DNA of 64,000 nucleotides from Parcubacteria group bacterium (GTDB taxonomy: Bacteria > Patescibacteriota > Minisyncoccia > UBA6257 > Colwellbacteraceae): the NCBI GenBank assembly GCA_041649615.1, contig JBAZMT010000001.1, forward strand, positions 26,981 to 90,980, read 5' to 3'. The number at the start of each line of letters is the position of its first letter. Positions within the stretch are counted from its first letter, which is position 1. The notes below the pieces were generated by a model. The model saw only the letters and a program-made list of their open reading frames with translations. It ran no database searches and was not told the DNA's origin. The position numbers were made by a program, and so were the translations under genes. Positions 5,681-64,000 of this stretch are shown one piece after another.

Positions 5681-6901
5681 ATGAACGATAAAAAAAGGAA
5701 GACGAGGCAGCTAGCGACTATACTTTTCACTAATCTCATCAGCGTCATAGGAATGAGCGTGGTGATACCCATATTGCCTTTCTACGTTGAATCTTTGGGA
5801 GCGAGTCCGATAATAGTTACGGCTCTTTTTTCAGTCTTTTCAATCTGTTCCTTCGTGAGCGCGCCTTATTTGGGTTCGCTCTCTGAAAAATTAGGCAGAA
5901 AGCCCGTGCTTATGGCAAGCATTGCGTCCACTTCCGTAGGCTGGTTCGTTTTTGCCATCGCTAGAAATCCGATCTTGCTTTTTGTCGGACGAATAATAGA
6001 CGGTTTGGCGGCGGGGGATTTTTCCATAGCCCAAAACATATTAGGAGACATAGCCGAAGACGAAAAAGAAAGGAAAAAATTTTTTGGCTTTTTCGGCGCC
6101 ACTTTTGCCGCCGGATTCATATTGGGACCCGTTTTAGGAGGTCTTCTTGCGGAATATTCGCCTTCGGCGCCTTTTTTCATCGTATCGGGACTTGCCGTTT
6201 TGAATCTCATTATGGTCCATTTCGTGATTCCCGAAACTAATATGCACGCGGACAAGCAAAAGAAAGTGGAGTTAAATCCCATTAATCCGATTTTAAAAGC
6301 CGCAAAAGACAGAGAATTACGCAAAGTGATGCTTTCCTGGTTCTTCTTCATGATGAGCGTTTCGGGGGTGCAGTCCGTGGCGTCTCTTTATATGAAAGAG
6401 CGTTTTATGTTGAGGCCCATGTTCATAGGACTTGCAATGGTTGTGGGGAGCGTAATAGTCATCTTAAACCAGATTTTCGGAATGAAATTTTGGACGGCCA
6501 GCCGTAAGGACGAACTCGTGGAGCGCGGAATGCTTTTAGTCGCTTCCATCGGGTATTTTCTGATTATCGGAAATATTTTCATTGCCGTACTCGGCGCTTT
6601 GATCTGCACCATTACCGAAAGCACTTTGAGAGCATTTTTTTCCGAGAGAATATTTTCCAGGGCGAAACCCGGCGAGCAAGGGGAGATAATCGGAACTCAG
6701 TCGTCTTTGATGTCTCTCGCTTTCGCCATTATGCCGATGTTTGCCGGGCTCGCGTTCATAAACCACAAATCGCTGCCGTTTATAGCTAGTTCAATCTTAA
6801 CTTTTGTCGCTTTTACCATATCCACTAAATTTCTACCGAAAGAATTTCCAAGCAAAGTTCAGCCTGAAAATCTGAATGCCGATGAACTCTCCGGTTTTTA
6901 G
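5681..6901 (+). CDS. MFS transporter (drug:H+ antiporter-like)
   Basis: 406 aa, approx. 12 TM segments. MFS signature GRIIDGLAAG after TM2 (G-x3-D-R/K-x-G-R motif region). Confidence 0.8.
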   Translation: MNDKKRKTRQLATILFTNLISVIGMSVVIPILPFYVESLGASPIIVTALFSVFSICSFVSAPYLGSLSEKLGRKPVLMASIASTSVGWFVFAIARNPILLFVGRIIDGLAAGDFSIAQNILGDIAEDEKERKKFFGFFGATFAAGFILGPVLGGLLAEYSPSAPFFIVSGLAVLNLIMVHFVIPETNMHADKQKKVELNPINPILKAAKDRELRKVMLSWFFFMMSVSGVQSVASLYMKERFMLRPMFIGLAMVVGSVIVILNQIFGMKFWTASRKDELVERGMLLVASIGYFLIIGNIFIAVLGALICTITESTLRAFFSERIFSRAKPGEQGEIIGTQSSLMSLAFAIMPMFAGLAFINHKSLPFIASSILTFVAFTISTKFLPKEFPSKVQPENLNADELSGF

Positions 6902-6904
6902 AGA

Positions 6905-7138
6905 TTATTTGGCTAAAAATTCAAACAATTGGTAAACCAAAAATGCCGGCCAGGCGAGAGCTTTAAGAAATCCCAGAACGCCGAACCAAAAACTCGTAGC
7001 TTCACCGATGAAATAAACGGCCGCTCCGATAAGACCTATGCCGTAAACGGCTCCGCCGCAACCGCACTTCGGTTTATTGCACTTTTCCCCTTCGGTCTTT
7101 TTACCGAATTTTTTAAAACAATCGGAAAGTTTGTACAT
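6905..7138 (-). CDS. small Cys-rich membrane protein (2 TM)
   Basis: 77-aa ORF with CNKPKCGCGG followed by two hydrophobic helices. The overlapping + strand ORF is less protein-like. Confidence 0.4.
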   Translation of the reverse strand: MYKLSDCFKKFGKKTEGEKCNKPKCGCGGAVYGIGLIGAAVYFIGEATSFWFGVLGFLKALAWPAFLVYQLFEFLAK

Positions 7139-7176
7139 AAATTAATTATAACAGGGTTTTATGATATAATAGCCTG

Positions 7177-7596
7177 ATGGAAAAGAAAGTATATACGTGG
7201 CTTGCAGTGTTAATTTCCGCGTTTATCGGCGGTCCGTTCGGCGGAATTTATATGTTGAGCCAGAATTACAAAACGCTAGGCAAGGATGACCTCGCTAAAA
7301 AGTGGTTGCTCTTCGGAAGTTTGGCGATCGTCGGTTTTCTTGTCGTAATGTCGCTCCTGCCCGCGTCTTTCACGAGCCCCACGGCCGGAGCCGCGGCTTC
7401 TAGCGCGATCGCCATCGGACTCGGTCTTACCGCGAAGCAAAAACAGGATAAAGAAATCAAAGAAATCCTTGCCGCGGGCGGAAGGAAACAATCCGTCGGA
7501 AAAATCATAGGGATTAACGTACTCTCAATACTCATAACGCTCGTGTTAACTCTCGTTGTTACCGGAATTTTTGCGCTAATCGGATTAAATAAATAA
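7177..7596 (+). CDS. hypothetical integral membrane protein
   Basis: 139 aa with 4 predicted TM segments. No family recognised. Confidence 0.5.
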   Translation: MEKKVYTWLAVLISAFIGGPFGGIYMLSQNYKTLGKDDLAKKWLLFGSLAIVGFLVVMSLLPASFTSPTAGAAASSAIAIGLGLTAKQKQDKEIKEILAAGGRKQSVGKIIGINVLSILITLVLTLVVTGIFALIGLNK

Positions 7597-7657
7597 TTTT
7601 TATGAGGCAGGAAAAAAACTCGCTAAGTTGAGCGATTTTTTTATAGGCTATTTGTTT

Positions 7658-8892: not shown

Positions 8893-9627
8893 TTAAAATT
8901 TATAATTTTCAATTTCCATTAAATTCTCAATTTCTAATTTTCTTTTTCCATTCACCGGAGCGTCGCTCACGAGGCCGTCTTTAATGTGAATGATCCGGTC
9001 GGCGTAGGCGGCCACTTCCGCTTCGTGAGTGATGACGACTATGGTTCTTTTTTCCTGCGTGTTCAGACGGCGGAAAATATTCATAACCGTTTCGCCGGAA
9101 ACGGAATCAAGATTTCCGGTCGGCTCATCGGCCAAAATAATACTCGGGTTATTAACCAGAGCGCGGGCGATGGCGACCCGCTGCATTTGTCCTCCGGAAA
9201 GCTGATTTGAAGAGTGATGAAAATATTCTTCGCCAAGTCCCACGGATTCCAAACACTTTTTAGCACGTTCAATCCGCTTGTCTTTTTTTTCGTCGGTATA
9301 AACCAAAGGAAGGGAAACGTTTTCTACGGTTGAAGTACGGGGAAGGAGATTGAAAGACTGAAAAACGAAACCGATTCTTTCTCTTCTTATTTCAGCGAGC
9401 TTATCATCGGGCAGTTCCGAAACGTCCGCGCCGTCCAAGAAATATTTGCCTTCAGTGGGACTATCAAGACAACCCAAGATGTGCATGATGGTTGATTTTC
9501 CGGAGCCCGAAGGACCCATAATGGCGACGAATTCGCCGTCGTTCACGCTAAAGCTTATGCCTTTTAGAACTTCGGTTGAAACGTCTCCCGTCAGATATGT
9601 TTTTTTGACGTCTTTGACTTCTATCAT
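8893..9627 (-). CDS. ABC transporter ATP-binding protein (MacB/LolD-type)
   Basis: Walker [13 protein letters not shown] signature [15 protein letters not shown], Walker [12 protein letters not shown]. Confidence 0.9.
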
Positions 9628-31960: not shown

Positions 31961-32581
31961 ATGATATTTGCAATGCACAGTGGTTCCAGTGGCAGGTCTC
32001 TTAAGGGCTTCACGCTTATAGAGCTTCTTATAGTCATCGCCATCCTCGCGGTTCTTGCCGCCGCCGTGGTGGTTGTGTTGAATCCGGCTGAACTTCTCGC
32101 TCGGGCGAGAGACACGCAGAGGTTAAACGATTTGGATACGGTAAGGAACGCGCTCAATATTTATATAACTACGGTTTCTCCGATAGATTTAGGAGACTGT
32201 GTCGCTGCCGGAAGGGCAACCTTTCAGCCAGGCGCCACTATGGGACCGTTTGCGAATCACGTGGGTAGCGTAACGGTACCTGCAGCAGCGGATATGCAAA
32301 AAGTGAATAATGCTGGCTGGGTAAACGTTAATTTTACCCAGATTCCCGGAGGAGCGCCTCTCCCGTATCTTCCGATTGATCCTACAAACGATGCTAATTA
32401 CTTTTATGCCTACGCTTGCAGTGAATCGCCAAATTACATTTATGAATTAGCCGGAAGATTGGAGTCTCAAACGCATCGGGATAAAATGAAAATCGATGGG
32501 GGAAGTAATAGTACATGCGCCACTTATATTGAAAAGACGTGTTTTTATGAGTTAGGTACCGCTCCGGGATTGTCGCTATAA
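31961..32581 (+). CDS. type IV pilin-like protein (prepilin N-terminal methylation domain)
   Basis: GFTLIELLIVIAILAVLAA prepilin cleavage/methylation motif near the N-terminus. Confidence 0.75.
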   Translation: MIFAMHSGSSGRSLKGFTLIELLIVIAILAVLAAAVVVVLNPAELLARARDTQRLNDLDTVRNALNIYITTVSPIDLGDCVAAGRATFQPGATMGPFANHVGSVTVPAAADMQKVNNAGWVNVNFTQIPGGAPLPYLPIDPTNDANYFYAYACSESPNYIYELAGRLESQTHRDKMKIDGGSNSTCATYIEKTCFYELGTAPGLSL

Positions 32582-32653
32582 GCTATTAAGCTGTAAGGAG
32601 ATTTTTAATTTTCAATTTCTAATTTCCGAAAGACTTCAATTTCCCTCCCTATC

Positions 32654-34066
32654 CTAACGGGATAGAAGAAGGGGAGTAATATCCGAGATGTTTCCGGCGC
32701 CCATTAGGACGAGGATATCGCCCTTTTTTAAGGAGAGCTTAGCTATGCTTGGTTTAATATTTTTAACATTCTTAATATAAGTTGCTTTTGAAACCTGGAT
32801 TCCCGCCTTCGTGGGAATGACGGAAGATGGGAGATTATTAATATCGCGCGCGAGGGATTTGGAGTTTTTGGTTTTGGATAATTCATCTCTTCCTTTGGGA
32901 TTATAGGCATCAAGAAGAAGAACGTAATCGGCGTCGTTCCAAGAGGAAACGAAATCTTTATACAAAGCGGTGAGCCTTCGTTGTTGATGAGGCTCAAAAC
33001 AGACGGCGATACTCTGGCTTGGAAATTTTTCGCGGAGCGCTTGCAAGGTCGCTTTTATTTCCGTTGGATGATGAGCGTAATCGTCATAAACTTTAACGCC
33101 GTTTTTCGTAACGCCTTTATACTCAATTCGACGCCAAACCCCTTTGAATTCCGATAAGGCGCTTAAAATTGTTTTCTCGTTTATTCCTAACTTCTCTCCA
33201 AGTTTATATGCGGCAAGAGCGTTCATTATATTGTGTGTTCCCGGAATTTTGATAACGCGTTTTATTTTTTGAATTTCGGATTTGTTTTTTTCTGAAAAAT
33301 TAATTATGTTCCCCCATCCTTTTAAGCGGGGGATTAGAGATGCCGAATTTTTGTTGTCGCCGTTCAGGATTATATCTCCTTTTTTCGGAACGGATTTGAG
33401 AAACTTCAAAAACGAATTCTTGACGGCCTTCAAATCTTCATAAAAATCAACGTGCTCCAGATCAATGTTCGTGACAATCGCGGCGTACGGCCTGTAATGC
33501 CAAAAGGCGCCTTTATATTCGTCGGCTTCAATCACGAGCCAGTCACTTTTACCGTGTCGCATATTCCAACCGTTCAATTTGGTTCCAATAATGACCGTAG
33601 GGTCCATTTTAGCCTTAATAAGGATCGTTGAGACCATTGCGGTCGTAGTGCTCTTGCCGTGACTGCCGGCGATGGCGATTGTCTTATACTTCTTTGTTAA
33701 TTCTCCCAGAGCTTCGGGATAGGTCTCTCGCTTAATATCCAAATTATCCGCCTTCTGTAATTCGGAGTTATCTAAGGGTATAGCGGCTGAATAGATAACT
33801 AAATCAGCCTTTTCGGGCAAATTTACCGATTTGTGCCCAATTTTGACCTTTATCCCGTCTTTCTTTAATTCCCTGGTAATTTGACTTTCTACGGCATCAG
33901 AACCTGTTACGAGCCAATTTTCGGCCAAAAACCAACGAGCTAAGGAGCTCATTCCAATGCCGCCTATACCGATGAAATGAACCACTTTTCTGTTGGCCTG
34001 ATAGGGGAGACTGACGCCTGAGCGAACTTTAGGTTTTACAAATTTAGACATATTCGGATACAACAT
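32654..34066 (-). CDS. murC: UDP-N-acetylmuramate--L-alanine ligase
   Basis: VHFIGIGGIGMSSLARWF Rossmann N-terminus, Mur ligase P-loop GSHGKSTTTAM, C-terminal KKGDILVLMGAGNI. True start may be the Met at 34051. Contains an in-frame copy of the palindromic repeat (residues SVIPTKAGIQ). Confidence 0.85.
   Translation of the reverse strand: MLYPNMSKFVKPKVRSGVSLPYQANRKVVHFIGIGGIGMSSLARWFLAENWLVTGSDAVESQITRELKKDGIKVKIGHKSVNLPEKADLVIYSAAIPLDNSELQKADNLDIKRETYPEALGELTKKYKTIAIAGSHGKSTTTAMVSTILIKAKMDPTVIIGTKLNGWNMRHGKSDWLVIEADEYKGAFWHYRPYAAIVTNIDLEHVDFYEDLKAVKNSFLKFLKSVPKKGDIILNGDNKNSASLIPRLKGWGNIINFSEKNKSEIQKIKRVIKIPGTHNIMNALAAYKLGEKLGINEKTILSALSEFKGVWRRIEYKGVTKNGVKVYDDYAHHPTEIKATLQALREKFPSQSIAVCFEPHQQRRLTALYKDFVSSWNDADYVLLLDAYNPKGRDELSKTKNSKSLARDINNLPSSVIPTKAGIQVSKATYIKNVKNIKPSIAKLSLKKGDILVLMGAGNISDITPLLLSR
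32797..32823. repeat. palindromic repeat element copy A (GGATTCCCGCcttcGTGGGAATGACGG), inside murC coding sequence
   Basis: 8-bp inverted repeat ATTCCCGC/GTGGGAAT with 4-nt loop. Shares flanks aacCTGG...GAATGACrGAA with the other copies. Translated in-frame as SVIPTKAGIQ within murC. Confidence 0.8.
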
Positions 34067-34068
34067 AC

Positions 34069-34096
34069 CGGATTCCCGGCGTACCGGGAATGACAG
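34069..34096. repeat. palindromic repeat element copy B (CGGATTCCCGGcgtaCCGGGAATGACAGAA)
   Basis: Perfect 8-bp stem ATTCCCGG/CCGGGAAT, loop CGTA. Lies 3 bp upstream of the annotated murC start. Confidence 0.8.
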
Positions 34097-34526
34097 AAAA
34101 AAAGAGAGGTAGAAGGAATTAAATATAGATATATACTAGCGGGATCAAAAATTAAAATTCAAAGAAGGGAAGGGATATCAAATAATATGTGTGTCGCAAA
34201 AGGTGCATTATGCGACATATGATTAAGATGCGCAAGCCTACTCCCCCTACATCTCCTCCTACATATTACCCATAACCTCCCTTGCCAATTTAGCGAGAGC
34301 ATCAAAAAGCAAACTTAAGACATTCAATAAAGCCTTCGCGGCCGGCAAAATGTATTGCCATGAATTCTTTAAAGCCTCAAGCACTTTTTGAAATTCCGGA
34401 GCTGAGTCCATGACTCTTATTATAGCTCAAACATGAAGAGACGTTAAAAGCGTTAAACGCCGAAATGTGAAAACGGTGAAGACGGATATGAAAACATCAC
34501 GCTTGGCTCCAGACTGTGCGGACGGG

Positions 34527-46689: not shown

Positions 46690-47796
46690 ATGGCTTTCGC
46701 GATGTATCGGCGGTATCGCCCCACAAAGATATCGGAGGTTGCGGGGCAAGACTCCGTCTCCGAGGTAATAAAAAACGCCGCTAAAACGGGAAGACTTGCG
46801 CATGCTTATCTTTTTTACGGACCGAGAGGCACCGGAAAAACATCAGTCGCGCGAATACTCGCGAAGTTGGCAAATTGCGAAAAGAGAAAAAACGATCCGG
46901 CGTTCAGAAAAGAAGGAGAGCCGTGCAACGAGTGCCCGCGCTGCCGAGAAATAGATGAAGGAAGATCGCTTGACGTCATAGAAATTGACGCCGCCTCTAA
47001 CAGAGGGATAGACGAAATAAGAGAATTGAAAGAAGGAGCGAGATTGACGCCCGCGTATTCCGAAAGAAAAGTATTCATCATTGACGAAGCTCATCAGTTA
47101 ACCAAAGAAGCGTTCAACGCTCTTCTAAAAATCCTTGAAGAGCCGCCGGCGCACGTAATGTTTATTTTGGCGACGACCGAATATGACAAATTGCCCGCAA
47201 CGATCGTTTCAAGAACCCAGCGTTTTTCTTTCAAAAGAGCCTCTATCGGGAAGATAATGGAAAAACTCAAAACCATTTCCAAGGCGGAAGGAGTGAAAAT
47301 AAGCGATGATGCGCTTGAGGTTATCGCTTCGGCCGCGGAAGGAAGTTTCAGGGACGCGGAATCGCTTTTTGAACAAGTAGTGGCAATGGAAGACGAGAAC
47401 ATCACTCTTTCCGAAGTGGAGCGGATTTTGGGAAAAGCCGGTTCGCAGAAAACCGAATTACTCGCGGAAAAAATCGTGAACAAAGATTTACCTGGCGCTT
47501 TGGAAACGCTTGCGCGCATAAACGAGGAAGGATACAACCTTTCGCAACTCACGAAAGATTTGATCCATTACTTAAGAAGAGTCTTAGTTGTTTCTTACAG
47601 TCCCAGAATGGCGGACTTATTTAAAGATGAAGTCACTTCGGAGACGGCAAAAAAAATAACGCAAAGCGCCGAAGAGTGCGACAGAGAAAAATTGATCGTC
47701 GCGTTAAGGGCGTTGATTGAGGCGTACGGAGAAATAAAATACTCCCCTTTCGCCATTATTCCATTGGAAGTGGCGATAGTGGAAAGCCTTAAGTAA
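46690..47796 (+). CDS. dnaX: DNA polymerase III subunit gamma/tau (short form)
   Basis: YRPTKISEVAGQ, Walker A GPRGTGKTS, Zn module CNECPRCREI, SRTQRF sensor. True start probably the Met at 46702. Confidence 0.9.
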   Translation: MAFAMYRRYRPTKISEVAGQDSVSEVIKNAAKTGRLAHAYLFYGPRGTGKTSVARILAKLANCEKRKNDPAFRKEGEPCNECPRCREIDEGRSLDVIEIDAASNRGIDEIRELKEGARLTPAYSERKVFIIDEAHQLTKEAFNALLKILEEPPAHVMFILATTEYDKLPATIVSRTQRFSFKRASIGKIMEKLKTISKAEGVKISDDALEVIASAAEGSFRDAESLFEQVVAMEDENITLSEVERILGKAGSQKTELLAEKIVNKDLPGALETLARINEEGYNLSQLTKDLIHYLRRVLVVSYSPRMADLFKDEVTSETAKKITQSAEECDREKLIVALRALIEAYGEIKYSPFAIIPLEVAIVESLK

Positions 47797-47814
47797 GTTC
47801 AAAATTTCTAATTT

Positions 47815-48180
47815 TCAATTTCTAAACTTTCTCGCATCTTCTACTCGCTCGTAGCCATCAAAATAAACTTTATCTTCCGATAAAACTTTAACCACTTTAT
47901 AACGCCCTTTTGTCCAGACTTCGCCGTTACGAAGGAAGTGAGCGCTCTCCAAAATAATCACGCTCGCTTTCGGTTTGGATAAAACTCCCCCGCCTTTAGT
48001 TTCGCGAAGCGGGATTTCGCCCAAAAGCCAATAATGTTTCTGCCCGTTTTTAAGAAACGGATATTCTTTTCCTTCTTCCAGAGCTTCGGGGAGGCATTCG
48101 CTTTCTTCTCTCCTTCCCTCTTTGAGTTCCTTGATATTTCGGAGCGCAAGATCGGGACAATATTCGGCAATAATGGCCAT
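47815..48180 (-). CDS. hypothetical protein
   Basis: 121-aa ORF, no recognised motif. Divergent from the next ORF. Confidence 0.4.
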   Translation of the reverse strand: MAIIAEYCPDLALRNIKELKEGRREESECLPEALEEGKEYPFLKNGQKHYWLLGEIPLRETKGGGVLSKPKASVIILESAHFLRNGEVWTKGRYKVVKVLSEDKVYFDGYERVEDARKFRN

Positions 48181-52861: not shown

Positions 52862-53375
52862 TGCGGCCGGGTAAGCCGGATTCTGTAATCACCTCTCCAG
52901 TTTTACGTCTGTAAAACTGGAGAGGGATGATGGCAATTTATCTAGGTCTAAGATTACTCTTAGACTCAAGCGACTCCCTATGACCCGCTTTTGCTCTTGC
53001 GAGCTATAGCGAGGCATAGTACGGTCTTGCATTCCACAAGGATTTAGCCGTTTCACTTCCGTTTTTTGTCCCTATCACGGAATTAAGCCTTCTACGTTGG
53101 GATGGGGCTCTCCTCAGCTTTTCAGCTCGATATTTCTATCGGCTCGCTTTTGCGCTTGCGCGCTATAGCGTAGCGAAGACGTCACTGCTCGCACCTCTCT
53201 TATCAAATAAATTGGTAAGGACGGCTTTTAACCGCTGTGTTTTTCCCCTCTCCAGTTTTCGTAAAAACTGAGGAGGGAGAAAGTCCAGACTTTCCTCATC
53301 TCATTTCTTAATACTGATTCCCGCTTTCGTGGAAATAACAGAGAGAAACAAAACGCTGCCATCCGGGCCGCAATT
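52862..53375 (-). ncRNA. rnpB: RNase P RNA, bacterial type A (M1 RNA-like), unusually long
   Basis: Minus-strand sequence contains GAGGAAAGUCUGGACUUUC (P4 5' strand, cf. GAGGAAAGUCCGGGCUCC; + strand 53285-53297) and ACAGAAUCCGGCUUA (P4 3' strand; + strand 52872-52886). It also has CCUAGAUAAAUUGCC (cf. CCUAGAUGAAUGAC), GCUUGAG + P17-like hairpin, AAGGCUUAAU...AGGG (cf. AAGGCCAAAUAGGGG) and CCCAUCCCAACGUAGAAGGCU (cf. CCACCCGGAGCAAGGCC). A putative P1 pairs GCGGCC (53363-53372 region) with GGCCGC at the 3' end. Ends are approximate. Confidence 0.65.
53316..53346. repeat. degenerate repeat-like hairpin (GATTCCCGCtttcGTGGAAATAACAGAG), alternatively the P3 helix of rnpB
   Basis: Resembles the repeat consensus with 2 stem mismatches. 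On the minus strand it forms an AUUUCCAC-GAAA-GCGGGAAU hairpin (GNRA loop) at the position expected for RNase P P3. Confidence 0.4.
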
Positions 53376-53412
53376 GTTTATAACATAAAAATGCAACAAC
53401 GTCAATCAACCT

Positions 53413-53439
53413 GAATTCCCGCCTGCGCGGGAATGACAG
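53413..53439. repeat. palindromic repeat element copy C (GAATTCCCGCctgcGCGGGAATGACAG)
   Basis: Stem ATTCCCGC/GCGGGAAT, loop CTGC, flank aacCTGA...GACAGAAAAA. Intergenic between the rnpB 5' end and the ppiB start. Confidence 0.8.
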
Positions 53440-58744: not shown

Positions 58745-58871
58745 TTCAGGTACCTCCTTTTCTAAAATTTTTATTGTCCAGCTTTCATTTTATCATAAAA
58801 GAACGATTTTGTCAATCTTCCTCCGCTGAAGCTAAGAAAGGATACAGCATAGGGATGATAACAAAAAACCT

Positions 58872-58898
58872 GGATTCCCGGTACGCCGGGAATGACAG
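58872..58898. repeat. palindromic repeat element copy D (GGATTCCCGGtacgCCGGGAATGACAG)
   Basis: Perfect stem ATTCCCGG/CCGGGAAT, loop TACG, flank aaaCCTGG...GACAGAAGG. Intergenic, 3' of the gtrA-like gene. Confidence 0.8.
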
Positions 58899-58929: not shown

Positions 58930-59355
58930 TTACTTTTTGAAGACGATAAATTTATAGCCTAAGAAGTTCCAAATAAGAGAAATACCCGTGGCGAGGACGG
59001 CTCCGACATTTACCCATAACGCTTGAGAAAGACCGAACATCGGTTTGATGAAAGTTGAAATCAGATAAACTATCCCCGAATTTATCGCCCATCCGATAAT
59101 GCTTACAATCAAAAATTGACCGACTTGAAAAACGCGAACGGATTCTTTGTCTTTGAACGTCCAAAATTTATTCCACAAATAACTATTCGTGGTCGCGATT
59201 ATAAAGGCGGTGCTCGTTAACGGAATGATTGAGATTCCTTTCGTTATGCCCGTTATAAAAATGAGGAAGTTCAATACGCCAAAGTAGATCGCCGTATTAA
59301 GAACTCCGATCACGGCAAATTTTCCGAATTGAAGAAAAAGCTTTTTGATGTCCAT
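58930..59355 (-). CDS. GtrA-family membrane protein
   Basis: Start set at the internal Met (MDIKKLFLQFGKFAVIGVLNTAIYFGVLNFL), the typical GtrA N-terminus. The automated ORF extends further only by reading through a palindromic repeat located in the tpiA 3' end. Confidence 0.7.
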   Translation of the reverse strand: MDIKKLFLQFGKFAVIGVLNTAIYFGVLNFLIFITGITKGISIIPLTSTAFIIATTNSYLWNKFWTFKDKESVRVFQVGQFLIVSIIGWAINSGIVYLISTFIKPMFGLSQALWVNVGAVLATGISLIWNFLGYKFIVFKK

Positions 59356-59359
59356 TACT

Positions 59360-60118
59360 TTATTGTACTGGATTCCCGCTTCCGCGGGAATGACGGAGGG
59401 ATGCAATTACTATCGGGACTTCTTTTAATTTTAAACTAGCGCCGCCAACAAGAACACCGGAAACGTCCGGGGCTTCGGCGTATATTTCCGCGTTCGCCGG
59501 ATTAACCGATCCGCCGTAAAGCACTTTAGCTTTTTTACCGAAGATTTTTTGGAATCTTTCCGCCATCGCTTCCATAACCGGCGCCATTTCTTTCAAAGTC
59601 GCATTCCTTCCTCCGCTCGTGGTGCTTATGGCCCAAACGGGTTCGTAGGTGAGAATGATTTTATCCGCCTTTTCTTTCGGAACCCCCGAGAGAGAATCGT
59701 TTAATTGCGCAATAACCGTTTTAATGGCGGATGGAACGCTTGTTCTTTTTCTTTCGCCAACGCAAACAATGGGGATAACGCCCGCGTTTATCGCGGCTAA
59801 AGTTTTTTTGGAAACCGATTCGGAGGTTTCGCCAAAGTTTTTTCTTCGCTCTGAATGACCCAAAATGGCGTATTTAACGCCAAGACTTTCAAGCTGCGCA
59901 AAAGAATACTCCCCCGTGTATGCGCCCTCCGTATAAAATCCGTCTTGCGAGCCCAAGGACGCGTGTTTTAATTTGCCCGCGACAAGAGACAAAAAAGGCG
60001 CCGGCGGACAGACGATGACGTTTGGGGAATCCGAGGCGGAAGCAAGCAATTTCGCTTCGGCAGAAGAAGCGGGATTGCATTTCCAGTTCATAACTACGAG
60101 TTTATCGGAGGTTTTCAT
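59360..60118 (-). CDS. tpiA: triose-phosphate isomerase
   Basis: NWKCN, ILGHSERR, YEPVWAI(S/G)TG motifs. C-terminal 10 residues (SLRHSRGSGNPVQ) are encoded by a copy of the palindromic repeat. Confidence 0.9.
   Translation of the reverse strand: MKTSDKLVVMNWKCNPASSAEAKLLASASDSPNVIVCPPAPFLSLVAGKLKHASLGSQDGFYTEGAYTGEYSFAQLESLGVKYAILGHSERRKNFGETSESVSKKTLAAINAGVIPIVCVGERKRTSVPSAIKTVIAQLNDSLSGVPKEKADKIILTYEPVWAISTTSGGRNATLKEMAPVMEAMAERFQKIFGKKAKVLYGGSVNPANAEIYAEAPDVSGVLVGGASLKLKEVPIVIASLRHSRGSGNPVQ
59370..59396. repeat. palindromic repeat element copy E (GGATTCCCGCttccGCGGGAATGACGG), inside tpiA 3' end
   Basis: Stem ATTCCCGC/GCGGGAAT, loop TTCC. Encodes the last residues of TpiA (RHSRGSGNPVQ*). 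The automated ORF for gtrA read through it as SVIPAEAGIQ. Confidence 0.8.
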
Positions 60119-60126
60119 GGGAGTAA

Positions 60127-60594
60127 TTATATGACAGAAAGCAGATTAGAGCCCGTTTGCACGAAAAAAGAAACGATGATGCCCGAAATTATGGCGCCAA
60201 GAATTATCATTATAGCCGCTTTTTTAAGCGGAACGCCGAAAACAAGCGCCATTAACGTTCCCGTCCAAACGCCGGTCAAAGGAAAAGGCAGGGCCACAAA
60301 AATAAAAAGAGCGAGACTTTCCCACTTTTTAAATCCCCAGGAATGTCTTTTGCGCGTCATATCGGTGAGCCAGGCGAAGAGCCGGTTAAAATAGTAAAAG
60401 TGATCGGCGAGCTTTTCGGCTATAAAATTCCAAAATAAAAGAAGAGGAATAACCGGCAAAAGATTTCCCAAAGTGGAAAGCAGAAACGCCTTAAGAACCG
60501 AAAAATGCCAAATAAAAACGGCGAAGGGCATTGCTCCTTCCAATTCAAAAAAAGGAGAAGCGCCAATAAGAACGGTCAACAATTCTCCTTTCAT
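60127..60594 (-). CDS. small membrane protein (COG2426-like putative small multidrug export protein)
   Basis: 155 aa, 4 TM. Family call tentative. Confidence 0.45.
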   Translation of the reverse strand: MKGELLTVLIGASPFFELEGAMPFAVFIWHFSVLKAFLLSTLGNLLPVIPLLLFWNFIAEKLADHFYYFNRLFAWLTDMTRKRHSWGFKKWESLALFIFVALPFPLTGVWTGTLMALVFGVPLKKAAIMIILGAIISGIIVSFFVQTGSNLLSVI

Positions 60595-61628
60595 CGTCCT
60601 TTGAGAAACGCGGCGCCGTCATCCGGATCAACAACCGTTATTTCTATGCCCGTACCCAATTCAAAGCCCGCCGAGATAACGATCTTCGGCTGAATTTCAA
60701 TGTGCCAGTGATAAAAAGGATAATCTTCCCTGTTCTTGACCGGAGCCGTGTGAATGAAAAAGTTATAATCAACGCAGCCTAATCTGTCTTCAAGCATTTT
60801 TAGAGATTTTTGCAAAGCTTCGGCAATGTACTTCAGGCAAGACGGACCGCAATCTTCAAAAAACGGGGAATGAATTTTAGGGAATACTCTTATTTCAAAA
60901 GGTTCCCGTGAAACGAAAGGAAGAAAAGCGATCGCTCCCCGATTTTCAAAGATAATTCGTTTTTTCTCGGCTTTTTCTTTTTTTAAAATGGTGCAATGAA
61001 CGCAAGAACCGTTTTCTTTGTAATACCGTTCCGAACCGCGCAAAGAGTGGCTTACGTCCGGAGGAACGATCGGAATGGAAATCATTTGATAATGAGGATG
61101 ATAAACGGAAGCTCCCGCCGCGAGTCCCCAGTTGTGAAATATGGAAACGTACGCGATTCGTTCGTCTCTCGCGACCATGCGGTATCTTTCCTGCATTACT
61201 TCCAAGCACATTGTCGCTTCGGCCGGAGAAAGGCGCGGAAAATTTTCATCATGGCCCCGGGTTATGACGACATCATGATAGCCCACTCCTTTCATCAAGT
61301 AATAGGGACCGTTTTTCAGGACGGCGGTTGTTTGTTCGGTACCTGAAAAAACAGCCGGATAAAGATTCGGAACGACTTGGATCCGCCAGTTGCCGCGTTT
61401 GTCCTCGCGAATCAGAACCGGTTCGGCGTTTCCCGAAGCCTGGGGATTCTCAAAAGGACATTTATCTTTCGGAACAACGATCTTTTCTTTTTTTACTATG
61501 AGCTCTTGAGGTCTTTTTTTTCGTCCGGTCGCGATAAGAACCCAATCGCCGGACACGATGTCTTGCCTGAATTCGGATCCGTCAGAGGGAACGCTGGTTT
61601 TTTTTCGGCTGCCGAAAATTCCTGCCAT
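60591..61628 (-). CDS. galT: galactose-1-phosphate uridylyltransferase (GalT/HIT-like)
   Basis: IFHNWGLAAGASVYHPHYQ (HxHxQ active site), Cys/His zinc ligands CVHC. 345 aa. Confidence 0.8.
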   Translation of the reverse strand: MAGIFGSRKKTSVPSDGSEFRQDIVSGDWVLIATGRKKRPQELIVKKEKIVVPKDKCPFENPQASGNAEPVLIREDKRGNWRIQVVPNLYPAVFSGTEQTTAVLKNGPYYLMKGVGYHDVVITRGHDENFPRLSPAEATMCLEVMQERYRMVARDERIAYVSIFHNWGLAAGASVYHPHYQMISIPIVPPDVSHSLRGSERYYKENGSCVHCTILKKEKAEKKRIIFENRGAIAFLPFVSREPFEIRVFPKIHSPFFEDCGPSCLKYIAEALQKSLKMLEDRLGCVDYNFFIHTAPVKNREDYPFYHWHIEIQPKIVISAGFELGTGIEITVVDPDDGAAFLKGR

Positions 61629-63493
61629 TAATCAATATTAATTCTATTGTCATAATACCATCTAAAAACATCGTAGGCCACCGGAACGGCGTTTAAACTT
61701 CCCTCTTTTGCGTTTTCAACGAGAACCAAAAGACAAATGGGCGCGTAGTTTTCCGATTCAAGAGGCATCGGGCCGCAGCCGACAAAGAAGGCGTTCGTTT
61801 TCGCTTTATTCTGCACTTGCGCGCTGCCGGTTTTGCCGTAAGTTTCAAAGGGAAGAGAATTCAACATCGCGGCCGTGCCGTATGATTTCTGGACCGCGTC
61901 TCTCATTCCTTCGGCAACTTGGGAAAGTTCGTCTTTCAGATAACTCAAGTCGGCGAGTTTTTCGGGGTTAGCGCCAAAAACAAGATTCGGCTTCCAAAGC
62001 GTTCCACCGTTTACAACCGAAGAAACCGCCGTTATGAGGCCGATAGGCGTAACGGTAAGGTCTCCCTGGCCGATAGAAACGTTGTAGGTGTCGCCCAAGG
62101 TCCAATCGGTACCGGTTCTTTCTTTTTTGTCTTCGGCAGACGGAAGATATCCGACCGATTCGCCGCTCAAAGAAATGCCCGTTTTTTTATTAAGCCCAAA
62201 AAGAGAAAAATATTGTTTGAGTCTCCCGATGCCAAGCCCTACCGAAATATCGGAGTCCCCCATAAAGAGATCGCGATTGTAAGGCAGGCCTCCTCCCACG
62301 GCATAAAAGAAAATATTTGAAGATCTCGCGAGAGCGGAGTAAATATCAACCCAGCCGTGAGCTTTCCAGTCAACGAATCGCGTGGGAGATCCTGGATCGT
62401 ATTTGTTCGGAACGTCAAAGTAACCGTTCGAAAGAACCATTTCCCTGGTGCCGATTATTTTTTCTTTGAGAGCGGCTGTAGCCACGATGAGCTTGATGGT
62501 TGAACCGGGGCTGTAAAGACCGGTAACCGCCCGATTAAAGAGCGGCTTTTCCGGATCAGAAAGTCCCGCTGAAATATCAGAGGAAGAAAAGCTCGGCAAG
62601 CTGACCAGACTCAAAATTTCGCCGTTCAAGGGATTAACCGCTATTCCCACTCCTCCGGGACCGGCATTTGAAAGAGCTTGATTTAGCCTCTTGTAAAAAT
62701 ATCTTTCTAAGTCGGCGTCAATCGTCGTTTTCAGATCGGCACCGGTAACGGGTTCGCTAAAGGTTTGAGCGCCAAGAAGCTCGCCTTTAACGTTTCGGTA
62801 CTCAACCGTTTGGCCGTTTTTGCCGCGGAGAGTATCGTCATAAATCGCTTCCAGATTGGTTCTTCCCACGACATCCACGGAAGAAAGGTCTTTGTCTTCT
62901 ATTTCTTCCTTGTCAGGATAGCTGACATAGCCGACAACGTGAGCAAATTCATTCTCAAAAGTTCTTTTGGTGTCTTTTGCCACGTAAACGGATTTGAGAT
63001 CGGAACTTTCAACGGCGATCGCTTCGGCTTTCGTAATGTCTTTTTTAACGACCACTTCGCTTACTTTTTCAAGATTGCTTTCGGAAAGAATTTCCCTCAA
63101 TTGTTCTTCCGTTATGCCGAGGCTGCCGAGGAACGATTCCACTTTTTCGGCTTCGTCATACTTTATAAGTTCTGACGGCCGGAGCCTGAGGCTCAAGATG
63201 GGAACGTTTTCCACTAATTTCTCGCCGTACCGGTCGAAGATGAAGCCGCGATCTGCGGCGGTAATCGTAACTTTGTTAACGGCACCGTCCGCTCGCGCGC
63301 TGTAAAATTTACCTTTGATTCCGCCGAGATAAACGATTCTAAAAAGAATCACCGCGCCGAAAGCAAGAAATAAACCGGCAATGGCAAAAAAAACGACGTT
63401 CCTGAGAGGGTGTTCGCGACGATTAAGACCGGTACCCAAATTATCGGTAGTTATCTCGTCAAAGAAAAATTTTCTCTCGCGTTTTTTGGGCAT
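61628..63493 (-). CDS. mrdA: penicillin-binding protein 2 (class B transpeptidase, PBP2/FtsI family)
   Basis: N-terminal TM, dimerisation domain, STIK (SxxK), SSN (SxN), KTGS (KTG) motifs. Follows the mreD-like gene. Confidence 0.85.
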   Translation of the reverse strand: MPKKRERKFFFDEITTDNLGTGLNRREHPLRNVVFFAIAGLFLAFGAVILFRIVYLGGIKGKFYSARADGAVNKVTITAADRGFIFDRYGEKLVENVPILSLRLRPSELIKYDEAEKVESFLGSLGITEEQLREILSESNLEKVSEVVVKKDITKAEAIAVESSDLKSVYVAKDTKRTFENEFAHVVGYVSYPDKEEIEDKDLSSVDVVGRTNLEAIYDDTLRGKNGQTVEYRNVKGELLGAQTFSEPVTGADLKTTIDADLERYFYKRLNQALSNAGPGGVGIAVNPLNGEILSLVSLPSFSSSDISAGLSDPEKPLFNRAVTGLYSPGSTIKLIVATAALKEKIIGTREMVLSNGYFDVPNKYDPGSPTRFVDWKAHGWVDIYSALARSSNIFFYAVGGGLPYNRDLFMGDSDISVGLGIGRLKQYFSLFGLNKKTGISLSGESVGYLPSAEDKKERTGTDWTLGDTYNVSIGQGDLTVTPIGLITAVSSVVNGGTLWKPNLVFGANPEKLADLSYLKDELSQVAEGMRDAVQKSYGTAAMLNSLPFETYGKTGSAQVQNKAKTNAFFVGCGPMPLESENYAPICLLVLVENAKEGSLNAVPVAYDVFRWYYDNRINID

Positions 63494-63778
63494 TTAACTT
63501 AAAAACAAATAGGCGTTCATTATGGCAAAAGAAATGACGATGGAGAGAAAAACGTTTAACCCTCTGGCGAACGGGAGTTTTTCCTCTAAAATTGTTCCCA
63601 AAATCAAACTCGCGAGAAAAACAATGTTCGTAACATCAAATCCCGAGCGAAATTTCACAAAAAGCGCTATGGCGAGAATAATTATTCCCTTTACAAAAGG
63701 GCTCTTAAAAAAGGAGACGACAAGCAGGGCGGCTACAAGAGCGATATTTCCGGCATTAATGAGAGACAATAAGGACAT
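63494..63778 (-). CDS. small polytopic membrane protein, possibly MreD-like
   Basis: 94 aa, 3 TM. Positioned between the mreC tail and the PBP2 gene, as mreD usually is. No sequence motif to confirm. Confidence 0.35.
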   Translation of the reverse strand: MSLLSLINAGNIALVAALLVVSFFKSPFVKGIIILAIALFVKFRSGFDVTNIVFLASLILGTILEEKLPFARGLNVFLSIVISFAIMNAYLFLS

Positions 63779-64000
63779 TTCTCAAGTTTTTTATCTCAAA
63801 CATCGGCTCAACGGAAGCTTCTTTAAGCAATCCCTCGGAGACTTGGAGAGTGCGGCCTATTCCCAGGCCATAAGGCAGTGATGAGGCAGCGGAGACGATT
63901 ATTTCACCAGGAGGGATGGGCTTGTCAGAATCAATCATTTTTAATTTCGGATCCATTCCCCCGATATAGAGGGCATCTGTTTCGGCTTCCCCGATGCGGA
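63756..64000 (-). CDS. mreC: rod shape-determining protein MreC, C-terminal fragment (gene continues beyond window)
   Basis: C-terminal GEIIVSAASSLPYGLGIGRTLQV resembles the MreC GxVVTSGLGGxFPxGLPIG motif. The frame is open to the window edge. Confidence 0.5.
   Translation of the reverse strand, partial: RIGEAETDALYIGGMDPKLKMIDSDKPIPPGEIIVSAASSLPYGLGIGRTLQVSEGLLKEASVEPMFEIKNLRNVLIVSH

Follow-up and report, generated by a model that had tools for sequence, protein, structure and literature searches.

In a 64,000-nucleotide stretch of DNA from a Parcubacteria group bacterium (contig JBAZMT010000001.1, positions 26,981 to 90,980; hereafter the window), the gene murC, which encodes UDP-N-acetylmuramate--L-alanine ligase, carries a short palindromic repeat within its coding sequence. 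Very probably, this is a single unit of about 33 nt of the repeat known as CGTC-1 repetitive extragenic palindrome (REP), dRS3, or Neisseria Transformation Sequence (NTS), which was inserted in-frame and in the sense orientation in a tolerant loop of MurC. A previous sequence-only reading of the window had proposed a 27-nt palindromic element inside murC at 32797-32823. Its coordinates, the open reading frame (ORF), and the encoded peptide were all confirmed. Feature coordinates are collected in Table 1.

Insertion of the element in murC

The murC ORF product contains the Mur_ligase N, M, and C domains (Pfam). It is 100% identical to a protein of a Parcubacteria-group metagenome-assembled genome (203-kb contig), named UDP-N-acetylmuramate--L-alanine ligase by NCBI. 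The listed start (MLYPNMSKF..., window 34049-34066) is probably five codons too early; the real start was placed at the ATG of MSKFVKPK..., because the relatives begin at MSK....

The 27-mer GGATTCCCGCCTTCGTGGGAATGACGG is located on the (+) strand at window 32797-32823, within the murC ORF on the (-) strand. The coding strand reads CGTCATTCCCACGAAGGCGGGAATCCAG at 32795-32822. The element is translated as S-V-I-P-T-K-A-G-I-Q within ...ARDINNLPSSVIPTKAGIQVSKATYIK... of MurC; the peptide context also reads ...NNLPSSVIPTKAGIQVSKATYIK.... The 27-mer is thus found where it had been placed, but the extra unit relative to the uninserted homologues is wider, spanning 33 nt (32792-32824). The element had also been put about 50 codons before the C-terminal KKGDILVLMGAGNI block. 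The actual gap is about 22 codons, from the insert end (residues 415-425) to the block (from residue 447), and the insert lies about 45-55 codons before the stop.

The best 30 of 7979 MurC homologues (P0001-P0030) were aligned, and the DNA of nine close relatives (L001-L009) was compared at the codon level. The extra residues are missing from the close relatives P0004, P0007, P0010, P0011, and P0012, and from all 18 distant homologues (P0013-P0030). Between the ...LA(K/R)DIN and KA(T/V)YI motifs, the window MurC has 16 residues; the uninserted relatives have five (KLDPE, KLSPG, KLFTD, KLYPE, or KLSPV), and the 18 distant homologues have 2-7. At the DNA level, the window murC is longer than the uninserted L003, L008, and L009 by exactly 11 codons at this site. 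The flanking codons and all the invariant Mur-ligase positions are kept in the window MurC. The reading frame is therefore maintained on both sides of a clean 11-codon indel with conserved flanks, as had been proposed, and the segment, estimated in that reading at 9-12 residues, is 11 residues long. Since the outgroups do not have the 11-codon segment, the insertion is the derived state. As in the RPE-like cases (RPE, Rickettsia palindromic element), the insert lies inside an otherwise intact and conserved ORF, preserves the frame, and is missing from the orthologues.

The 33-nt insert was also compared with the local repeat consensus. It is identical at 30/33 positions (p<0.0005 against shuffles), and the extra 33 nt in murC matches the conserved extent of the repeat family.

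An AlphaFold2 (AF2) model of the window MurC was built on the 30-homologue alignment, with a mean predicted local distance difference test score (pLDDT) of 85.2 and a predicted template modelling score (pTM) of 0.75. Residues 411-427 form a loop between the helix 402-410 and the strand 428-432 in the C-terminal domain. The block pLDDT is 75-80 in the loop, and 93 and 88 on its two sides. When the best-scoring solved MurC (9ir5) was aligned to the window MurC, gaps were found across the insert. In the model, the insert falls in this loop and outside the core and catalytic elements, which agrees with the loop position that the sequence-only reading had suggested. The site had also been described as a variable linker in other MurC proteins; the predicted helix-to-strand loop is indeed length-variable across the MurC proteins of the candidate phyla radiation (CPR). 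In alpha/beta domains, the helix-to-strand connections are at the N-terminal edge of the sheet, opposite the ligand-binding edge formed by the C-terminal strand ends. Based on this general knowledge of the fold, the insert loop would lie away from the ligand-binding strand ends.

Identity of the element

The CGTC-1 REPs have an unpaired CGTC/TGTC head and a CCA tail, and between them an 8-bp stem that begins with AT and closes a 4-nt loop (Di Nocera, De Gregorio & Rocco 2013, PMC3733652). In the same survey, the CGTC-1 family was equated with the Neisseria dRS3 and the R. conorii RPE-6 (PMC3733652). The parallel with the Rickettsia palindromic elements, drawn from the sequence alone, is thus closer than had been proposed. 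The 28-nt NTS, which contains dRS3, has the consensus CGTCATTCCCGCGMAVGCGGGAATCYRG (Nat Commun 2025, PMC11893778). It is bound and cut, solely as single-stranded DNA (ssDNA), by SsnA, a 94-aa GIY-YIG nuclease; Ssn-related motifs (SRM) accompany the ssnA homologues across phyla (PMC11893778). The cognate ssnA of such a system encodes a single-domain GIY-YIG protein (cd10448), and is often bordered by the repeat.

The murC copy shows one mismatch to the 28-nt NTS consensus, which is within the published search criterion (at most one mismatch). An exact dRS3 core, ATTCCC-N8-GGGAAT, is present at 32799-32818. The unpaired 5' head is CGTC in the murC copy, and CGTC or TGTC in four other copies of the window. 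Within the stem, 7/8 pairs are intact, with one A.C mismatch (ATTCCCAC vs GCGGGAAT). The stem is followed by the 3' tail CCAG, and the C directly past the palindrome, reported as critical for SsnA binding (PMC11893778), is present. A G-to-A change in the murC copy breaks one stem pair and converts the usual Ala codon to Thr. Folded as DNA, the copy has an energy of -3.6 kcal/mol (z = -0.08), and does not form a significantly stable hairpin by itself. Hand translation of the consensus showed that five of the six reading frames are stop-free; the sixth has a TGA. No Rfam family was matched at the repeat. Judged by its sequence features, the murC element is a bona fide CGTC-1 REP/NTS.

The pattern ATTCCC-N8-GGGAAT, with at most one mismatch, occurs at 6 sites in the window vs 0.36 expected from dinucleotide shuffles. 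The six sites align as one direct-repeat family (D1) in a single orientation. The murC palindrome is not a chance occurrence.

Table 1. Positions of murC, the insert, the repeat copies, and the neighbouring pilin-like gene in the window
Feature	Position	Strand	Description
murC (UDP-N-acetylmuramate--L-alanine ligase)	32654..34066	(-)	470-aa ORF; from ORF list, Pfam, and named homologue
In-frame insert, 33 nt, TCCGTCATTCCCACGAAGGCGGGAATCCAGGTT	32792..32824	(-)	Encodes S415-V425 (SVIPTKAGIQV)
NTS / CGTC-1 REP core in murC	32795..32822	(-)	CGTC head, arms ATTCCCAC + GCGGGAAT, loop GAAG, tail CCAG
murC-internal copy	D1 from 32792	(-)	NTS with 1 mismatch; hairpin z = -0.08
Copy directly upstream of murC, TGTCATTCCCGGTACGCCGGGAATCCGG	34068..34095 (D1 from 34065)	(-)	Published SRM search pattern; DNA hairpin z = -3.87
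Degenerate intergenic copy, 98 nt from the 53411 copy	53310..53348	(-)	D1 at 64% identity; z = -0.75, no stable hairpin
Intergenic copy, TGTCATTCCCGCGCAGGCGGGAATTCAG	53411..53438 (D1 from 53408)	(-)	NTS with 2 mismatches; hairpin z = -4.44
Copy just downstream of GtrA-like gene, TGTCATTCCCGGCGTACCGGGAATCCAG	58870..58897 (D1 from 58867)	(-)	SRM pattern; hairpin z = -4.0
Copy at tpiA 3' end, upstream of GtrA-like gene	59368..59395 (D1 from 59365)	(-)	NTS with 1 mismatch
Type IV pilin-like gene	31961-32581	(+)	N-terminal GFTLIELLIVIAILAVLAA; convergent with murC

Occurrence in related genomes

The same MurC loop contains a canonical NTS, TGTCATTCCCGCGAAAGCGGGAATCCAG, in P0005 and P0009 (L002 and L007), which come from two different metagenome samples. 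Its orientation and frame are as in the window MurC (SVIPAKAGIQ). In both loci, the NTS follows three tandem, partial duplicates of the 5' part of the element, TCTGTCATT[A/C]CC..., which suggest repeated slippage or break repair at the hairpin base. The duplicated 5' heads (TCTGTCATTACCACTACTACC / TCTGTCATTCCCGCTACC / ...) are located in murC at about 3000-3108 of L002 and about 1215-1324 of L007, and represent the region of the reported SsnA cutting.

In L003, murC is uninserted, and gltX (6216..7640) has an in-frame NTS, CGTCATTCCCGCGAAGGCGAAAATCCAG, at L003:7350-7377. It is translated in another frame, as RHSREGENP. The L003 gltX product is 11 residues longer than the orthologues in the window, L001, and L004. 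The additional 33 nt of gltX was considered as a second measure of the unit length and rejected; the adjacent codons are rearranged, so that it represents a net difference only.

Other inserts were found in the MurC loop as well. L001 has a 10-codon insert in murC at the same site as the window insert. The inserts of L001, L004, L005, and L006 aligned locally to the NTS consensus no better than shuffles (p = 0.23-0.95), and their DNA folding was unremarkable (z = -1.3 to +1.2). A hot spot for hairpin insertion in the MurC loop was therefore rejected, as these inserts are neither detectably NTS-like nor hairpins. Since the other MurC-loop inserts (P0002, P0003, P0006, P0008) are not detectably NTS-derived, the loop is generally indel-prone.

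A neighbour-joining tree of MurC was constructed with the insert loop excluded. Five groups were recovered at bootstrap 99-100: the window and P0002; P0005 and P0009; P0006 and P0008; P0007 and P0011; and P0003, P0004, and P0012. The deeper nodes that connect these groups are poorly supported (bootstrap 6-42), and the inserted and uninserted lineages are interleaved. The P0003 insert arose within a well-supported and otherwise uninserted clade. In the sister genome L001, the copy upstream of murC is matched by a decayed orthologue, TGTCATTCTCGCTAAGGCGGGAATCAAT; the repeat family is therefore old in the clade.

These data might also be explained by one ancestral NTS insertion in the MurC loop of the P0001-P0012 ancestor, which was kept in the window and L002/L007, and decayed or was lost elsewhere. 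The inserts of L001, L004, L005, and L006 would then be decayed remnants, and the uninserted relatives would have lost the NTS precisely. The window and L002/L007 copies do share the loop, the orientation, the frame, and a similar 5' flank (CCATCTTCCGTCATT vs CCTTCTTCTGTCATT); the 10-codon insert of L001 is at the same site, the deep nodes of the MurC tree have the low bootstrap values given above, and the upstream NTS is demonstrably old and decaying in L001. However, at least three precise in-frame deletions would be needed, in (P0007, P0011), (P0004, P0012), and P0010. The nearest relatives of L004 are uninserted (99% bootstrap clade). Moreover, the four other inserts show no significant NTS similarity and no hairpin signal, whereas the window and L001 still share about 75% identity in the orthologous intergenic copy. 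A single ancestral insertion is thus considered rather unlikely. We lean towards an independent gain of the NTS insertions in the window and in P0005/P0009, as a single gain would call for three or more precise losses.

Copies in the window and in other genomes

Four of the six window copies form stable ssDNA hairpins (z = -3.9 to -4.4); the murC and 53310 copies do not. The upstream copy has the same orientation as the murC-internal copy and is 1273 nt away. With the murC start placed at MSK..., it sits about 17 nt 5' of the likely start codon. The 59368 copy supplies the last 11 codons and the stop region (RHSRGSGNPVQ*) of tpiA (59360..60118, -). In the tpiA product (252 residues), the TIM Pfam domain extends to residue 234, and the NTS-derived tail lies beyond it. 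The same copy probably gives the GtrA-like ORF (58930..59406, -) a spurious N-terminus, MHPSVIPAEAGIQ; the GtrA domain begins at residue 29 of the product (Pfam). The GtrA-like gene is flanked by two same-orientation NTS copies, 498 nt apart. An independent assembly of the same organism, the Logan contig L131 (SRR8542065), is 100% identical to window 59368-64000 and stops exactly at the last base of the 59368 NTS copy, which is the behaviour expected of a genome-wide repeat. Comparison of L131 with the window indicates that the NTS repeats fragment short-read assemblies.

All six copies (window 32792-59403) have the NTS strand on the (-) strand, with a two-sided chance of about 0.03. The GC skew gave no clear replication-strand signal that would explain this uniform orientation.

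The exact 27-mer GTCATTCCCGCGAAAGCGGGAATCCAG was searched in one genome per GTDB species (L010-L129). It was found in at least 120 stretches of the species-representative genomes, from many phyla. The matches listed include Proteobacteria, Chloroflexota, Planctomycetota, Nitrospirota, Acidobacteriota, Bacteroidota, a Rickettsia endosymbiont, and others. At least 10 CPR lineages have the 27-mer, including Paceibacteria, Parcubacteria, Saccharibacteria, Peribacteria, Falkowbacteria, Sungiibacteriota, Wolfebacteria, Magasanikbacteria, Jacksonbacteria, and a 'Patescibacteria group' genome. In L050, among the matches listed, a GIY-YIG gene and the repeat are 11 nt apart, as in the published association. 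The Rickettsia endosymbiont (L042) has two NTS-like copies, which are not exact 27-mer sites, in a 1137-codon stop-free stretch. Long stop-free stretches spanning copies in other phyla were found in 32/169 cases, with the same five open-frame peptides; this is an upper bound, as long stop-free stretches are common in GC-rich genomes. Whether from CPR or elsewhere, the copies examined all have a pyrimidine-rich 5' flank, with C/T at position -1 in 91-96% and a depletion of G over about 10 nt. The flank may belong to the element itself, or it may reflect a preference for certain targets.

Origin and tolerance of the insertion

The intragenic and upstream copies of murC might have been functionally recruited and kept as a DNA or RNA signal, either as an Ssn cleavage site that delimits the tracts over which incoming ssDNA recombines (a proposal made for Neisseria), or as an mRNA processing or pausing hairpin. 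Such recruitment seems improbable. Two same-orientation copies do bracket most of murC, two others bracket the GtrA-like gene, and the single orientation of all six copies is consistent with a signal. In addition, NTS modulates transformation in N. meningitidis (PMC11893778), and a type IV pilin-like gene adjoins murC (N_methyl matches on the orthologues). On the other hand, the murC copy no longer pairs stably (z = -0.08), and palindrome mutations reduce SsnA binding (PMC11893778). Close relatives manage without the murC copy, ssnA was not seen in the window, and SsnA is inactive on RNA (PMC11893778).

A native MurC sequence resembling the repeat, or a mis-assembly at the repeat, is effectively refuted: although the contig is from a metagenome assembly and repeats do break assemblies of this organism, the insert has a 27/28 match to a defined consensus (0 expected by chance), murC continues in frame on either side, related assemblies have contig names that point to an assembler k-mer (k141) longer than the 28-nt core, and a comparable insertion was recovered from two independent samples in a different MurC lineage.

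The insertion of an NTS unit in murC, as favoured here, can be described as follows. A single unit of about 33 nt of the pan-bacterial CGTC-1 repeat very probably entered murC where the C-terminal Mur-ligase domain has a short loop from helix to strand. The insertion would have been tolerated because its length is a multiple of three, because the element frame in use (VIPxKAGIQ) is stop-free, and because the loop is length-variable and, from the general fold, located at the N-terminal edge of the beta-sheet. The inserted murC gene presumably remains intact and functional. The inserted copy is now decaying as a hairpin, with the G-to-A change breaking the stem. The unit might have arrived by the same process that spreads the CGTC repeats, most plausibly one acting on ssDNA hairpins with a trans-acting enzyme. 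To our knowledge, the GIY-YIG ssDNA nuclease SsnA is the only protein known to recognise the exact NTS. No dedicated transposase is known for the CGTC REPs (PMC3733652). NTS-ssnA-NTS as a present or past mobile unit, analogous to the REP and REP-associated tyrosine transposase (RAYT) pairs, has been put forward as a hypothesis only (PMC11893778).

Several points weigh against this reading. The insert boundaries are ambiguous by a few bases, and a clear target-site duplication is not visible at the murC junctions. The surface exposure of the insert is predicted from the secondary structure and pLDDT, and not from coordinates. The Joint Genome Institute (JGI) metagenomes gave 0 matches to the empty-site allele and also 0 to the filled site; since the filled-site pattern matches the window, this collection does not contain the species. 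The search for an ssnA/GIY-YIG gene in the 64 kb window and the sampled CPR loci was negative: a regular expression for ssnA/GIY-YIG had no match on the six-frame translations, tblastn with UPF0213 sequences and the GIY-YIG protein from L049 had no match in the window or the CPR loci, and a Pfam scan of 10 small window ORFs identified no GIY-YIG domain.

As a tentative extension, the CGTC-1/NTS hairpins of Patescibacteria could be actively mobile, now or until recently, as units of about 33 nt that preserve the frame and insert 3' of pyrimidine-rich runs. The MurC loop would have been hit independently in two lineages, and gltX in a third. If this is true, the clade offers natural pairs of filled and empty sites for working out the insertion mechanism of the CGTC REPs, and these pairs also bear on an Ssn-type GIY-YIG nuclease as the mobilising enzyme.

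Other sequence features near murC

A palindromic block, TGTCGCA-N12-TGCGACA, is located in the intergenic region upstream of murC (window 34186-34225), and reads TGTCGCATAATGCACCTTTTGCGACACATAT on the coding strand. It is near-invariant in six relatives while the surroundings diverge. No convincing Rfam match was found at this palindrome, which may be an operator or a small structured RNA. There is also an AT-rich repeated motif, ATTT[CT]TAATTTTCAATTTCTAA, at window 8898-8948, 32601-32622, and 47794-47825. The murC and pilin-like genes, which are convergent, are separated by a 72-nt spacer that holds one copy. Several MurC homologues of CPR contain peptide inserts such as IQNSKFKI, which resemble a translated AT-rich repeat of a similar kind. 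The pilin-like neighbour may be relevant if the NTS is tied to DNA uptake, as in Neisseria.

Comparison with known systems

The window family resembles the CGTC-1 REPs in its head, stem, loop, and tail. Both are multi-copy and mostly intergenic near the ORF ends, and some copies are translated (PMC3733652). Intragenic REPs have been catalogued for the GTAG and CGTC families; some CGTC-1 copies lie wholly within ORFs and are translated, with tRNA synthetase genes among the hosts (PMC3733652), which can be compared with the gltX of L003. The host gene here is murC, and the survey lists 5 phyla, among which Patescibacteria/CPR is not included. More than 50% of the intragenic inserts in the survey are dimers or groups, whereas the murC insert is a single unit. 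The window copies all have one orientation, in contrast to the head-to-head dimers of the CGTC-1 REPs.

Compared with the NTS/SRM system (PMC11893778), the murC copy has the same 28-nt sequence but for one base, and is likewise oriented by its non-palindromic flanks. The NTS/SRM are abundant in symbiotic, host-dependent bacteria, and the GIY-YIG gene beside the repeat in L050 is a further likeness. The differences are the stem mismatch of the murC copy and the absence of ssnA from the 64 kb window. A term search of the main text of PMC11893778 found no mention of intragenic or in-frame copies; Patescibacteria are not mentioned in the main text of either PMC3733652 or PMC11893778. The role of the NTS-Ssn pairs beyond Neisseria is still an open question (PMC11893778). 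In the library searched, no paper combined CPR with REP or palindromic elements, and searches for VIPAKAGIQ and similar peptide strings gave none.

[quoted passage not shown] However, the head of the murC copy is CGTC, not GTAG. No RAYT/IS200-like or other transposase-like ORF was noticed among the window ORFs examined. The MITEs are 70-300 bp in length, with terminal inverted repeats and target-site duplication, whereas the murC unit is a 33-nt single stem-loop without terminal inverted repeats or an evident target-site duplication.

The RPE-1 is roughly 100-150 bp in length. It resembles the murC element as a selfish palindromic repeat in-frame in an essential housekeeping gene, at a structurally tolerant-looking position, and with relatives whose orthologues are uninserted (Ogata et al. 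2000, as cited in PMC3733652). The RPE-1 is the longer palindromic insertion; the murC unit of 33 nt adds 11 residues.

In summary, knowledge of intragenic translated REPs goes back to the Rickettsia RPEs, and the murC case is a clean further example. What is new here is the host group (Patescibacteria), the host gene (murC), and the series of filled and empty sites. Within one small Parcubacteria clade, a single repeat unit is present in some orthologues of a gene and missing from others: for murC, the window and L002/L007 carry it and L003, L008, and L009 do not; for gltX, L003 carries it and the window, L001, and L004 do not. Such pairs provide material for defining the insertion boundaries, the target preference, and the tempo. 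Short peptides such as VIPxKAGIQ, RHSRExGNP, and SFPRKRES in CPR proteins are repeat-derived, and should not be taken for functional motifs. With these copies, the Patescibacteria join the hosts of a remarkably conserved 27-28-mer.

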